From Minisyncoccota bacterium (lineage in GTDB: Bacteria > Patescibacteriota > Microgenomatia > UBA1400 > UBA12028): DNA of 64,000 bases. Positions 53,891 through 58,847 of the stretch are shown here, piece by piece. The notes beneath the pieces were generated by a model. The model searched no databases, was not told where the DNA came from, and worked only from the letters and a program-made list of their open reading frames with translations. Location of the stretch: contig DNEP01000013.1 in assembly GCA_003487265.1 (NCBI GenBank), positions 125,736 to 189,735 on the forward strand, read 5' to 3'. Each line of letters begins with the position of its first letter. Within the stretch, counting starts at the first letter, position 1. Made by a program: the position numbers and the translations under genes.

Positions 53891-54247
53891 TTATAGTTTT
53901 CTAAACACGACCAACATTGCAAGAACTGCTCCGTATGTATCATACAGAATATCGCGTAACGTTGCTGTTCGGCCTGGAACATTTGACTGATGAAACTCGT
54001 CGGTCATTGCGTATGCGATTGTGAGGAACAACGGAAGGATCCACTGATGTCTCTGAGGCCTCATTGAATGTGTTCTGGCCATATACAAAAGAAAAAACAA
54101 CACGAAATATACAACCATGTGTGCGATTTTTTTTAGAAAAAAATCTGCCCAAATAACATCGGGACCTGGAAGAACCGATTGTGCAGACAACAGGTAGATG
54201 AGTACCATCCACAAACCAGAAGGAAGATACCAGAAGATCGTTTTCAT
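53891..54247 (-). CDS. VanZ-like family small membrane protein
   Basis: 118 aa with 4 TM. MKTIFWYLPSGLWMVLIYLLSAQSVLPGP...KIAHMVVYFVLFFLLY resembles VanZ-like (PF04892). Confidence 0.5.
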   Translation of the reverse strand: MKTIFWYLPSGLWMVLIYLLSAQSVLPGPDVIWADFFLKKIAHMVVYFVLFFLLYMARTHSMRPQRHQWILPLFLTIAYAMTDEFHQSNVPGRTATLRDILYDTYGAVLAMLVVFRKL

Positions 54248-55419
54248 GCGGAGTTCATTGTATCATTCCACAATGAAATCAACCAAAAAACATGCACAAG
54301 GAGCATACCAAAACAACATTGCACGATGCGGTTGTTTAGCGAAGTGCGAAAAATACGGTAATACAACACCGTCTTGAATACATGCGCATTCTTGTGTGGA
54401 GAATAGCGAAACTGCGGAAAACCAATGAATCGTTGTTTTTCTAAAGGAAAAAGAGTGTTGTTTTTTTGAGTTGAGAAGTCGTTACCTTTATCTGCAACCC
54501 GTTCGATATCTGAAGTTGATTGACGCGTTTCATATGGATCGATGTTTTTTCCTTTTTTTGTTGGAGAAGCTTGGATCCACACGTTGTCCTGCATCCGTTG
54601 CCAGGATGTTCCCGACACACAAGAAGTATACGAATATGAATCAATCTCCTCTCCCCGAAGAAAAATAGAGATCGTATCACCCGAGTTATTCAGTGCACGC
54701 GTAGACCATTCAATCATAAATATTTGGTTAGGAAGAATTGTTTGATCGGAAACTTGATATTGAAATGTTTGTGAATCGCGCAACGTCATCCCGCGAACAC
54801 TCAACTCTTCATTTGTTTTATTTTCTATCTCGATCCATTCATTTCCCGTTCCACAAGCGGATACCTCCGAAAGACGGAGGTCTGTTTGCGTGGCATCGCG
54901 TGCGGACAATTCAGGCAAGGGCGAGGCTAAAGGTGACGCTGTGGGAGATGGAGAAGGTGATGGAAAAGACGAAGGTTGAGGCGTTCCTGATGGTAGGAGT
55001 TGATCATTTTTTGAACCTCGAGTTGGCACTGACCATCCCCATCCACTCAACAATAATGAGAAAGATTTCCCTTCGGGAGAGGAGGTGACAATTCCCGTCC
55101 GCTGAATTCCCTCTATTGCTTCCTCTAATACAACCTCCTCTTTGTCGTTGTTGAGAGAAATCCCCGTGATATCTCTTGATAACACAGTGTATTCTTGTGC
55201 GGGGAAAAGAATATCGTTGAGGGAATAGAGATGTGTTGCCCCATATTGATCTGATACATTCCAACCACTTCCTTGAATATCACCGTCAGTGGTATTTAAA
55301 ATCTCGATCCATTCCGTTGCATCATCTCCTTCAGGATTAATCATCACTTCTGTTAATTGAAGTGGCGGGGGTGAAGATGCAAGTACTCGAGTGACAAACA
55401 GAAATAGAAAAAGAAGCAT
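54244..55419 (-). CDS. Secreted protein with two lamin-tail domains (LTD) separated by a Pro/Ser-rich linker
   Basis: Signal peptide MLLFLFLFVTRVLASS. LTD 1 LQLTEVMINPEGDDATEWIEILN. Linker PSPSPSPTASPLASPLP. LTD 2 LRLSEVSACGTGNEWIEIENKTNEEL. Confidence 0.72.
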   Translation of the reverse strand: MLLFLFLFVTRVLASSPPPLQLTEVMINPEGDDATEWIEILNTTDGDIQGSGWNVSDQYGATHLYSLNDILFPAQEYTVLSRDITGISLNNDKEEVVLEEAIEGIQRTGIVTSSPEGKSFSLLLSGWGWSVPTRGSKNDQLLPSGTPQPSSFPSPSPSPTASPLASPLPELSARDATQTDLRLSEVSACGTGNEWIEIENKTNEELSVRGMTLRDSQTFQYQVSDQTILPNQIFMIEWSTRALNNSGDTISIFLRGEEIDSYSYTSCVSGTSWQRMQDNVWIQASPTKKGKNIDPYETRQSTSDIERVADKGNDFSTQKNNTLFPLEKQRFIGFPQFRYSPHKNAHVFKTVLYYRIFRTSLNNRIVQCCFGMLLVHVFWLISLWNDTMNSA

Positions 55420-55460: not shown

Positions 55461-56627
55461 TTACTGAACGTGAAGATAAAAACTATACACGTTATCACCA
55501 TGATCAATATACACAATGTTAATTGTTGAACTTGACCCACAGCTTTGCGAGGAGGAATACAGCGTTCCATCAGCAGGCGCACGAATCACCTTTCCAGAGG
55601 TTGAAACCATATCAAATCCCGTGTGGATCCCACCTGAGTACTTATATCTCCACGAGTATGGAGTAACACCAAAATGTTGTGTTAATCGAATCGTGTCTGA
55701 TATTGGCCAATCCCAATTGCCATTTCCAATCGTCGTTTCCCCACCTTTTTCCTCATCTTTAATCGTTTTTGATTTCAAGTAGTCTGCGGGATTCACCCAA
55801 GTATTATTCTTTCTAATCTCAAAGTGAAGATGTTCTCCAGTTGAACATCCTGGATATCCCGAGTTACCAACTAATGCGATTGCATCACCTCGTTTTACAC
55901 TTCCAACCTTTTTCCCGTGAACGAGCGCTGACTCTAGCGCATTTTTTTCTGCCAAGGCTTGTGAGAGTAATGATTGATATTTTTGTTCATCATTTTTTGT
56001 TTGCTCAAGCAATGATTGTTTTTGCTTTCGTTGGTTCGCGAGTTGCGTGCGCTGAACTTGAAGTTTTTTCTGTAAACTTTCCATCTCCGTTTGTTTTTCT
56101 TCTTTCTTCAATCGTTCCTGATCAAAAATGATTTTTTGGTGTTCGGCTTGTTCGATGAGTACTTGCGTTTTTTGTTGCGTTTTTGAAAGGTACTTCTGGT
56201 GGAGAACAACCTCGCCAATCCCCTGCGAACTAAAAACGGAAAAACTGGAAAACGTTTTTCTGTTTTTATAGTCCTCGCGAATTTTTTGAATCAACACCTC
56301 AGAAAGTTTCTGAAGTGAAATCTCCAAACCCTCGATGCGTTGCTCTAGCGCCTCGATTTGAATTTGAAGCGCAGCGATCTCCAGCTCGGTTTTTTTAATC
56401 TCGCCTTCAGTCAATCTTGTCTGTTGATCAACTAAAAAAATGGTCGATGACAACGACTTTTGCTCACCTTGAAGCTGGATAATCCTCGATCGATATTCCT
56501 CAATTTTTCTTGTAACACATTCGTAGTCATCTGCAGAACAATCATCGACGGCCTGCACAAACGCCAGCGAAGGGATGAAAAAAACACCCACCGCAAACAG
56601 GATTAAGAAACGCTTTATGATTTTCAT
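55461..56627 (-). CDS. EnvC-like coiled-coil protein with M23/LytM peptidase motifs (FtsEX-associated); M23 segments in non-canonical order
   Basis: Signal/TM at N-terminus and long coiled coil (LEIAALQIQIEALEQRIEGLEISLQKL...). GNSGYPGCSTGEHLHFEI...VNPADYL is the M23 C-terminal motif with HxH. Later GGIHTGFDMVS...VIRAPADGTLY...IDHGDNVYSFYLHVQ is the M23 N-terminal motif with HxxxD. Directly downstream of ftsE-ftsX. Confidence 0.82.
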   Translation of the reverse strand: MKIIKRFLILFAVGVFFIPSLAFVQAVDDCSADDYECVTRKIEEYRSRIIQLQGEQKSLSSTIFLVDQQTRLTEGEIKKTELEIAALQIQIEALEQRIEGLEISLQKLSEVLIQKIREDYKNRKTFSSFSVFSSQGIGEVVLHQKYLSKTQQKTQVLIEQAEHQKIIFDQERLKKEEKQTEMESLQKKLQVQRTQLANQRKQKQSLLEQTKNDEQKYQSLLSQALAEKNALESALVHGKKVGSVKRGDAIALVGNSGYPGCSTGEHLHFEIRKNNTWVNPADYLKSKTIKDEEKGGETTIGNGNWDWPISDTIRLTQHFGVTPYSWRYKYSGGIHTGFDMVSTSGKVIRAPADGTLYSSSQSCGSSSTINIVYIDHGDNVYSFYLHVQ

Positions 56628-56633
56628 AGGCAG

Positions 56634-57497
56634 TTATCCGCGTTTTGTCGCTATATAACTCGAAAACATTCCGATTATTGATCCACCAACAACTCCCGCA
56701 CCAAGTTGCGCTCCAACAAACCAGTATGGCAATGGGAGAAGTGGAATAGAAGGAAGCATTTCGAGCACCCAAGGAAGGCCGTACATACCACGAACATACG
56801 CAACTCCGCATCCAAGAAGTGCGGAAAGTATTCCAATCATCACCCCTTCGAGAAAGAACGGAGTATAAATATATCCAAATTTTGCACCAAAGAGTTTCAT
56901 GGTCACAATTTCGCGTTTTTTGGTTGCAATCTTCATACTCATCACAATTGACATGCTTACAAACGACATCACAAAAAGCATCCCCACAATCTCGATTGAA
57001 ATCATGCGAATCGCCATTACCCATCGCTCAACTTCTTTTACCAAGTCTTCTTGAAACACAACTTCTTCTGTTAAGTCTTGATAAATTGCCATCTTTTCAG
57101 CTACACGTCGAAGTGTTTGCGCGTCTTGTGCCCGCACCTCAACGCTGGGAGGCAGAACATCTTCTGTGATGAAGCTCATCACGAGCGTGTCATTTTCATT
57201 CTCCTTTTGAAAGAGTTCAAGCGCGTCTTTTTTTGTTGTGACAAGAACATCGGTCACACCCTGTTCTTGCCGCAGCGCTTCGGCAACTTGAGCGATTTGT
57301 TCATCGGTGACTTTTTGAGTAAAAAACGCAGTGATTTGTGGTCGAGACTCAAAATATTGAAGAATCATGGATCCACTGTACAAAAAGAACGAGAAAATAT
57401 AACTCACATAAAATGAAATGGTGAGCAGAAAAAGAACCGCCAGTGAATGGTAGGGGAAACGTCGAATGTTTTTCTTCATCTCGGCGATGGCGCTCAT
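56634..57497 (-). CDS. ftsX: Cell-division ABC permease-like protein
   Basis: 287 aa. N-terminal TM, large extracytoplasmic loop, three C-terminal TM helices. 4-nt overlap with ftsE. Followed by the EnvC-like M23 gene. Confidence 0.8.
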   Translation of the reverse strand: MSAIAEMKKNIRRFPYHSLAVLFLLTISFYVSYIFSFFLYSGSMILQYFESRPQITAFFTQKVTDEQIAQVAEALRQEQGVTDVLVTTKKDALELFQKENENDTLVMSFITEDVLPPSVEVRAQDAQTLRRVAEKMAIYQDLTEEVVFQEDLVKEVERWVMAIRMISIEIVGMLFVMSFVSMSIVMSMKIATKKREIVTMKLFGAKFGYIYTPFFLEGVMIGILSALLGCGVAYVRGMYGLPWVLEMLPSIPLLPLPYWFVGAQLGAGVVGGSIIGMFSSYIATKRG

Positions 57498-58264
57498 GTG
57501 GATTCCTCCGGTTGTTGTTTTTTTTCTTCCCTTTTTGAAACTCGACGATGTTTTTCGGGTTCTTCTTCTTTTTCGTGTTTCTCATGTTCAGATTGTTTTT
57601 TGTGCTCTTCTCGTTCAGCAATTTCCCCTTCACTTAGTACCAATATCCGCTTCGTTTTTCCCATGACTTGATCCAAATGATGTGTGGCCATAAGTACCGA
57701 CACTCCCAATTCTTGAATCTGTTCAAACAGTTTCACAATTTGCTTTGCGGAGTCGGGATCGAGGTTCCCTGTAGGTTCATCAGCAAAAATAAGAGATGGT
57801 GCTACCGCAAGTGCACGAGCAATCGCAACACGTTGTTGTTCACCACCACTCAATTGAACGGGGAAAAACTGTTCACGATCTTTTAAGCCCACCAACGAAA
57901 GAAGATCAGAAACTTTTCGATCGATTTCTTGACGAGATTTTCCCTCAATCATCATAGGAAGTGCAATATTTTCCGCAACAGTGCGATCAACCAACAATTT
58001 TCCATCTTGAAACACCACAGCAATCTTTTTGCGTAATGCTGAAATTTCAGAAGGTTTCATCTTTGTGATGTCTTTTCCATCAATCAGAATGGAACCCGAA
58101 CTCACGGGGAGGTCGTGAATTAACAATCGCATGATTGTTGTTTTTCCTGCACCAGACTTTCCTGTAAGAACTACAAATTCCTGATCGTGAATCGAAAAAC
58201 TGACCTCACGTAAAGCGGTATGGCCGGTAGAAAAGGTTTTCGTAACCTTAATGAACTCAATCAT
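57494..58264 (-). CDS. ftsE: Cell-division ABC ATPase
   Basis: [63 protein letters not shown]. Extra Lys/Glu/His-rich C-terminal tail of about 35 aa. Confidence 0.9.
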
Positions 58265-58847
58265 TCTTTGATTTCTCGGCTTGTTCGAGCTCTTTTTGTA
58301 CCCAAGCTGGCACTTGAGCGTTTAGCTCAACAACTTTCACTTGTCCTACGTCCATTAACCATCCTGCGTACTGTGCGCGAAACGTTTCACCCTTGATCAT
58401 CACTCTATGATTGACAAAAAGATTAAGATCTACAGACGAAGAAGTGAGATACACCGTTTGTGACACACCACCTTCACGTACAATGCGATGTGTTCCTTCA
58501 CCATTAACACCGCCCGTTAACAATACACCCTCAACTTCATCTTTAAACGCGGATGCATCTTTTTCTCCATAGACTTGTCCTACCTCAACTTTTTGCTCCG
58601 AGGTACCTTGTGTAGAAGACTGTTGAGTTGTGTTTGTTTGAGAACGCACAGGAAGCGGGTAAACCTTAAAAAGGGCAAAGCCTGAACCAACACCGAACAA
58701 TAAAGCCAATACCGCAAATAGTGGCGCTTTTTTCATCGATTTCCCTTCCTTTTTCACAACTTGCTTTGGAATAATGGTGTCTCGCAATCGCGTGGCGGAT
58801 TGCGCATCTTCATCAAGAGAACCCAAGGGGCGAACAATGTCAGACAT
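58257..58847 (-). CDS. Hypothetical single-pass membrane protein
   Basis: Cytoplasmic N-terminus, TM (APLFAVLALLFGVGSGFALF), Thr/Gln/Ser-rich linker and about 100-aa extracytoplasmic domain. Overlaps ftsE start by 8 nt. Confidence 0.45.
   Translation of the reverse strand: MSDIVRPLGSLDEDAQSATRLRDTIIPKQVVKKEGKSMKKAPLFAVLALLFGVGSGFALFKVYPLPVRSQTNTTQQSSTQGTSEQKVEVGQVYGEKDASAFKDEVEGVLLTGGVNGEGTHRIVREGGVSQTVYLTSSSVDLNLFVNHRVMIKGETFRAQYAGWLMDVGQVKVVELNAQVPAWVQKELEQAEKSKND

Follow-up and report, generated by a model that had tools for sequence, protein, structure and literature searches.

A predicted circularly permuted M23 domain in an ftsEX-linked coiled-coil protein of Microgenomates bacteria

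In the window, by which we mean the whole 64,000-nucleotide stretch of DNA that was analysed, ftsE, ftsX and a gene for a coiled-coil protein with an M23 domain (here the M23 gene and M23 protein) follow one another on the minus strand (Table 1). The M23 gene starts 6 nt past the ftsX stop, and ftsE overlaps the start of ftsX by 4 nt. Simple scans of the minus strand found no promoter-like or terminator-like sites from ftsE to the M23 gene, which fits co-transcription. An Rfam scan added nothing, and a search of the ORFs of the window with a canonical M23 profile revealed no second M23 gene. The homologue search returned a protein 100% identical to the M23 gene product, recorded as 'Peptidase, M23 family' of Microgenomates group bacterium GW2011_GWF2_45_18. 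On this identity the window belongs to a Patescibacteria/CPR genome from the Microgenomates group.

The order prfB, a gene for a 196-residue protein, ftsE, ftsX and permuted M23 recurs in 68 of 80 related loci, or 68 of the 76 that can be assessed, as 4 of the 12 exceptions end at a contig edge. For the other 8 of the 76 assessable loci, no ftsEX was found within 4 kb of the gene. These eight (L031, L043, L045, L047, L050, L053, L057 and L070) all have 4 kb of upstream sequence that lacks ftsE and ftsX, and they may be paralogous copies or come from genomes with a split module. The succession of ftsE, ftsX and a permuted M23 gene is also found in two more divergent subfamilies (P0277 and P0396), where the other neighbours are different: a CtpB-like S41 protease comes after the permuted M23 at the P0277 locus, and FHA and sortase genes flank the P0396 locus. 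The M23 gene shows the linkage to ftsE and ftsX that characterizes FtsEX-coupled coiled-coil hydrolases and activators. The preliminary description of this DNA had called the product an FtsEX partner; the tight spacing, the conserved gene order and the two further subfamilies bear this out at the gene level.

The 196-residue ORF (58257-58847, minus strand), located between prfB and ftsE, overlaps the start of ftsE by 8 nt and encodes one predicted transmembrane helix. It is present at the same position in 65 of the 80 related loci, and no credible match to it was found in Pfam (one weak match, E 0.011), NCBIfam or PHROG. This protein is possibly a further part of the Microgenomates FtsEX module that has gone unrecognised. 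The FtsE has a C-terminal tail of approximately 45 residues past the ABC ATPase domain (57494-57640, minus strand) that is rich in Lys, Glu and His, and the FtsE of another permuted-M23 subfamily is 357 aa long. Extensions of FtsE may be common in the Microgenomates group. Directly downstream of the M23 gene (54244-55419, minus strand) is a gene for a 391-residue protein in which two lamin-tail domains (PF00932, E 1e-22) are combined with a spacer rich in Pro and Ser and with a hydrophobic C-terminus. It occurs at this position in just 4 of 80 related loci, and thus is probably outside the module. A small VanZ-like membrane protein (PF04892) is encoded at 53891-54247 (minus strand), and 53 of the 80 related loci have a VanZ homologue on the downstream side of the permuted M23 gene.

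Table 1. Features of the ftsEX-M23 locus. Positions are those of the window and residue numbers those of the M23 protein.
Feature	Position	Strand	Description	Basis
ftsE	57494..58264	-	256 aa, ABC ATPase	Pfam ABC_tran, E 3e-34
ftsX	56634..57497	-	287 aa, membrane partner	Pfam FtsX_ECD + FtsX
M23 gene, whole	55461..56627	-	388 aa, predicted secreted coiled-coil protein with circularly permuted M23 domain	ORF list
Signal peptide-like segment	56550..56627	-	residues 1-26 (MKIIKRFLILFAVGVFFIPSLAFVQA, then VDD)	sequence and AlphaFold2
Coiled coil	55917..56525	-	residues 35-237; helices 35-53, 59-133 and 137-237	
End of long coil helix	55917..56027	-	residues 201-237	conservation profile, AlphaFold2
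M23 C-terminal-third equivalent	55770..55916	-	residues 238-286	Pfam, canonical profile, hhalign
Linker, former M23 C-terminus to former N-terminus	55716..55769	-	residues 287-304	AlphaFold2 secondary structure
M23 N-terminal-two-thirds equivalent	55464..55715	-	residues 305-388	
Stop codon of M23 gene	55461-55463	-		

The signal peptide-like segment corresponds in the AlphaFold2 model to a helix at residues 2-21 and a low-confidence stretch after it, and cleavage is predicted to occur after residue 26. The first M23 segment after the coil (residues 238-286, hereafter the C-half) contains a beta-hairpin, a G-x-G loop with an invariant cysteine (C261), the motif H266-L-H268-F-E270 and NPxxYL; in the ORF translation, residues 253-284 read ...VGNSGYPGCSTGEHLHFEIRKNNTWVNPADYL. 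The second (residues 305-388, the N-half) begins at W305 (WDWP, the WxWP motif), well ahead of the HxxxD motif, and contains H335-TGF-D339, the invariant C363, H376 and Y384-L-H386-V-Q388. Residues 332-388 read ...GGIHTGFDMVS...IDHGDNVYSFYLHVQ in the translation and include the chain terminus, so that the stop falls two residues past H386, the catalytic His of the YxH strand.

Along the chain the motifs run HxH (266-268), HxxxD (335-339) and YxH (384-386), and not in the collinear M23 order of HxxxD, YxH and HxH. The Pfam M23 profile (PF01551) recognizes the protein with 62.4 bits (E 4.8e-17; gathering cut-off 28.7 bits) as two partial stretches, the better of which pairs protein residues 240-280 with profile positions 59-96 of 96. 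In a PDB sequence search against solved M23 chains, query residues 241-282 match their C-terminal part (322-360 of 6muk) and residues 314-387 their N-terminal part (8-77 of LytM, 2b44, and 265-315 of 6muk). BLASTP against a canonical coiled-coil and M23 protein (P0253) pairs residues 303-388 with its residues 270-350 and residues 240-285 with its residues 357-400. A canonical M23 profile built from 24 collinear proteins gives the same picture, with model positions 89-132 matching residues 241-287 and positions 2-83 matching residues 303-389 of the ORF. All four comparisons agree with the reversed motif order that had been read from the letters alone, and the PF01551 check proposed at that time yields split, reversed envelopes and no normal collinear domain.

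The native family domain profile, when aligned to the canonical M23 profile (hhalign), gives two matches in reversed order, with template positions 88-131 corresponding to residues 238-286. With the halves swapped in silico it gives one collinear alignment of 127 columns (canonical positions 4-131 of 131, E 3.8e-45, probability 100%), in which the junction shows only a one-column gap. The circular permutation first suspected is thereby confirmed at the profile level: on this sequence evidence, the M23 domain is a clean circular permutation cut two residues past the catalytic His of the YxH strand, and the old M23 termini are joined by residues 287-304. One detail of the early account needs revision, as the spacing between the halves was put at about 50 aa and the true linker is approximately 18-20 aa.

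The two zinc ligands of the HxxxD motif (H335 and D339) and both histidines of HxH (H266 and H268), a motif that supplies one catalytic His and the third zinc ligand, are invariant in an alignment of 119 homologues and occur in all of 211 permuted proteins. The His of YxH (H386) is likewise invariant in the alignment and is found in 203 of the 211. The residues characteristic of the M23 family are all in place, as had been claimed, and we predict that the protein binds zinc and is active as a peptidase. The loop ahead of HxH carries a cysteine (C261), as does the loop ahead of the D-H strand (C363). Both cysteines are found in 314 permuted proteins, just one of them in 4 and neither in 11, whereas 46 of 55 canonical M23 proteins have neither. 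In one permuted subfamily both cysteines have moved in register together. This pattern is compatible with a disulfide or some other shared site that connects the two halves, and a putative C261-C363 disulfide may hold the split domain together.

AlphaFold2 models the full-length protein with a pLDDT of 82.7 and the isolated domain as one compact unit (pLDDT 89.2, pTM 0.86). The linker at residues 287-304 is modelled as a beta-hairpin, with strands at 287-291 and 297-300 and a pLDDT of about 88-93. The N-half of the model superposes on M23/LytM structures; judging from model confidence and residue conservation, the HxH segment probably sits at its canonical place next to HxxxD. A Foldseek search of the PDB with the isolated-domain model returned nothing at E <= 0.001, a result that is uninformative on fold identity and is consistent with the absence of this topology among solved structures.

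The long antiparallel coiled coil ahead of a hydrolase-type domain is the architecture of FtsEX partners, and in structure comparison the modelled coil resembles those of EnvC, PcsB and RipC. In the model the coil helix ends at residue 237 and the first catalytic strand starts at 239 with no linker, so neither a flexible linker nor a restraining-arm helix is seen between coil and domain. Mean conservation is 0.72 in helix 201-237 vs 0.53 in the remaining coil, and the helix has an invariant face formed by L207, T210, E214, Q218, L221, Q223, E227, A230 and A234. P0156 and P0179, whose architectures are unrelated, have a similar helix (Q-A-[IL]-A...A-[LI]) ahead of their permuted domain. We infer that helix 201-237 is functionally part of the catalytic domain. 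It may be a regulatory element of that domain, and it might play a restraining role.

We consider it probable that the gene product serves the FtsEX division module as its extracellular hydrolase arm, in the form of an active peptidoglycan endopeptidase with a permuted domain. Since every catalytic residue is kept, unlike in EnvC, the M23 protein itself is most likely the septal endopeptidase. The protein would be exported via its N-terminal signal peptide, and the long antiparallel coiled coil would dock onto the FtsX extracellular domain, by analogy with EnvC, PcsB and RipC. Cycles of the FtsE ATPase would then move the coil, as proposed from the same systems (PMC11627006), and this movement would lead the M23 zinc endopeptidase to cut septal peptidoglycan cross-links. 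The second coil helix would enter, without a linker, the beta-hairpin that normally comes after the catalytic-His strand, and the protein terminus (...YLHVQ-COOH) would lie at the rim of the active site. Attachment beside the active site may let FtsEX act on catalysis by a more direct mechanical route.

We found 935 homologues of the M23 protein. The 120 listed, drawn from NCBI, JGI, ENA and Logan assemblies, are approximately 365-425 aa long, end in ...YLHVQ and without exception (120 of 120) have the C-half before the N-half. A search of 1.84 billion cluster representatives, each standing for a 50%-identity cluster, gave 91 permuted and 24 canonical proteins among the best 150 matches, and over all sequences gathered the permuted order is present in 377 proteins. 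Relatives are encoded in at least 321 species-level genomes, of which the best 80 belong to Gottesman-, Woese-, Collier-, Roizman-, Ames-, Pacebacteria and similar lineages. Identity in the domain region is 64-83% across the permuted family. The linker between the halves has a median length of 16 residues (range 0-49) and is nearly absent in some subfamilies. In nearly all of 211 permuted proteins the chain ends 0-4 residues past the catalytic-His strand, and V387 and Q388 are >90% conserved in the 119-sequence alignment.

An unusual motif order, taken alone, speaks for an assembly or rearrangement artefact or for a decaying pseudogene, and misassembly had been named as an alternative from the start. 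We give such explanations a practically negligible chance: the order and the C-terminal end are identical in the 120 listed homologues from independent assemblies, synteny is conserved in the 80 species genomes examined, and the domain region retains its high identity across the family. The comparison with orthologs in related genomes, suggested at the outset as one of the checks, refutes misassembly. As this layout recurs in hundreds of genomes of Microgenomates, which are ultra-small bacteria, the swapped arrangement is, by these comparisons, a natural and conserved variant. The protein could also be an activator of the EnvC type, in which an inactive M23-like domain switches on separate amidases, and in JGI several homologues carry the name 'septal ring factor EnvC (AmiA/AmiB activator)'. 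We judge this to be very improbable, as EnvC has no zinc ligands (PMC11627006), whereas here all zinc ligands and both catalytic His are invariant in hundreds of sequences. Complementation of half-domains in trans, with the C-half of one chain and the N-half of another forming a domain-swapped dimer, has a parallel in PcsB, which crystallises as a dimer with each catalytic domain inhibited by the other chain (PMC11627006). The near-absent linker of some subfamilies could also force swapping if the native M23 termini are far apart. We nevertheless hold a swapped dimer to be improbable: the AlphaFold2 domain is compact and confidently modelled as a monomer, the linker of the M23 protein is modelled as a structured hairpin, and the paired-cysteine signature links one loop of each half. 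In addition, known FtsEX complexes (8tzl and 8hd0, which are both also matches of the coil structure comparison) bind one partner molecule.

With the active endopeptidase as the preferred reading, the role of the permutation itself can be considered. It may be functionally neutral, an ordinary FtsEX-coupled M23 endopeptidase having received a new attachment point, without regulatory consequence, through tandem duplication and end-trimming in an ancestor. This reading, to which we assign somewhat less than an even chance, rivals only the mechanistic part of our proposal and not the identification. In its favour are the existence of canonical coiled-coil and M23 proteins of equal length and architecture (P0253, and P0270 from Berkelbacteria, another CPR lineage), the natural occurrence of tandem M23-M23 proteins, and the modular use of the permuted domain in proteins of different architecture (P0156, and P0179 with Exo_endo_phos). 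Neutrality accords less well with a chain end that even in highly diverged subfamilies is kept 0-4 residues from the catalytic His, with the strong conservation of V387 and Q388, and with the fact that strong conservation in the coil is confined to the helix that enters the domain. The fixed chain end and the conserved lead-in helix suggest that the new termini are under functional constraint. A specific adaptive role, which we regard as unlikely, would have the break placed at the active-site rim so that the lever helix pulls the hairpin by the catalytic His, with the conserved free C-terminus (...H-V-Q) and the face of helix 201-237 gating the groove. If true, this would represent linker-free 'direct-drive' switching of a peptidoglycan hydrolase by an ABC transporter-like motor, unlike the restraining-arm mechanism of EnvC and unlike the occlusion mechanisms of PcsB and RipC.

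The permutation likely arose when a tandem duplication was followed by loss of the two outer halves. Proteins with tandem M23-M23 domains were recovered in the homologue search, and canonical coil and M23 proteins are present in the Berkelbacteria. No direct intermediate (coil with M23-M23, or C-N-C) was found among the homologues searched. Tandem and 'CNC' matches were considered as intermediates and rejected, as they are complete tandem pairs of M23 domains carried by BlaR1-like or LysM proteins, which are unrelated. Three proteins (P0178, P0249 and P0263) are BlaR1-like M56 sensors with two complete tandem M23 domains and are unrelated to FtsEX partners; they surfaced because the permuted query aligns across the junction between two M23 copies.

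The permuted domain also occurs outside the coiled-coil proteins. In P0156, a very large protein (1256 aa) that has hydrophobic segments, it forms the end of the chain (residues 1102-1250), and in P0179 (894 aa) it is located at residues 686-834, fused to an Exo_endo_phos domain. Both copies retain the paired cysteines and the short helix ahead of the domain. Judging from these two proteins, the sequences suggest that the permuted M23 domain is an independently folding, mobile module. Several members of a permuted subfamily (P0397, P0400, P0410, P0434 and the gene at 2238-3470 of L084) are named 'hypothetical protein', and their precomputed Pfam match is absent or 'faint'. The permutation halves the profile score and thus leaves permuted division hydrolases unannotated. 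The order prfB, ftsE, ftsX, permuted M23 is also found in many MAG records titled 'uncultured Gammaproteobacteria' or 'Pseudomonadales bacterium' (loci L005, L013, L018, L020, L048 and others; the L048 contig is 840 kb). Those titles seem to be wrong labels or mere placeholders for genomes of CPR bacteria.

Few cell-wall hydrolases have been studied as much as the M23/LytM peptidases (e.g., lysostaphin, LytM and the EnvC/NlpD activators), and the described members and solved structures that we found are all collinear. No description of a permuted M23 domain was found in open-access papers and preprints, and an earlier mention elsewhere is possible. A 2022 review of M23 has zero occurrences of 'permut', and the sole permutation precedent found in the open-access literature concerns NlpC/P60. 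PDB searches found no solved structure with swapped M23 order. No NCBIfam model reaches its cut-off on the M23 protein, and phage M23 families in PHROGs match the C-half only. The permuted layout appears to be new, and the M23 family and the class of FtsEX partners are already known.

The M23 fold evidently tolerates a break right past the catalytic histidine, which may be useful for lysostaphin-type enzybiotics and for split or switchable enzymes. The family can serve as a natural experiment on force transmission from FtsEX to its hydrolase, because here the point of attachment lies at the active-site rim and no longer at the far end of the domain. The permutation would also explain the 'hypothetical protein' names and the partial or faint Pfam matches of many CPR division proteins, as well as their being missed by standard structure search. 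Finally, the permuted M23 domain could serve as a lineage marker for the Microgenomates group.

The closest counterparts are the canonical proteins with CC_PcsB and Peptidase_M23 domains (P0253, Berkelbacteria P0270 and Veillonella proteins of the 'EnvC family'), which likewise are approximately 390-400 aa long and have a signal peptide, a PcsB-like coil and intact HxxxD, YxH and HxH motifs. Identity between P0253 and the M23 protein is 36% over the N-half and 57% over the C-half. In the canonical proteins the M23 domain is collinear and is joined to the coil via its N-terminus, whereas the M23 protein has swapped halves, a coil joined to the strand following the catalytic His, and YLHVQ as its end. 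EnvC of E. coli, V. cholerae and P. aeruginosa, the FtsEX-bound activator of AmiA/AmiB, is likewise encoded by an ftsEX-adjacent gene and has a C-terminal domain of the M23/LytM type. [quoted passage not shown] EnvC is thus collinear with its metal ligands lost, whereas the M23 protein is permuted, has no separate linker and retains the ligands, so that it does not have the degenerate LytM domain of EnvC proper. The hydrolases PcsB (S. pneumoniae), CwlO (B. subtilis) and RipC (M. tuberculosis), which are under FtsEX control, carry CHAP or NlpC/P60 cysteine peptidases on flexible linkers, in contrast to the permuted zinc M23 domain, which is rigidly attached in the model. The catalytic domains of LytM and lysostaphin (2b0p, 4qp5 and 4lxc) are collinear, have no coiled coil and lack the cysteine pair of the permuted family. 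According to PMC6403190, which cites Anantharaman and Aravind (2003), YaeF/poxvirus G6R and LRAT-like proteins are circularly permuted NlpC/P60 families, and as described there they provide a precedent for a peptidoglycan-peptidase domain with a swapped order of catalytic residues. Those families have another fold, papain-like Cys/His chemistry and no link to FtsEX.
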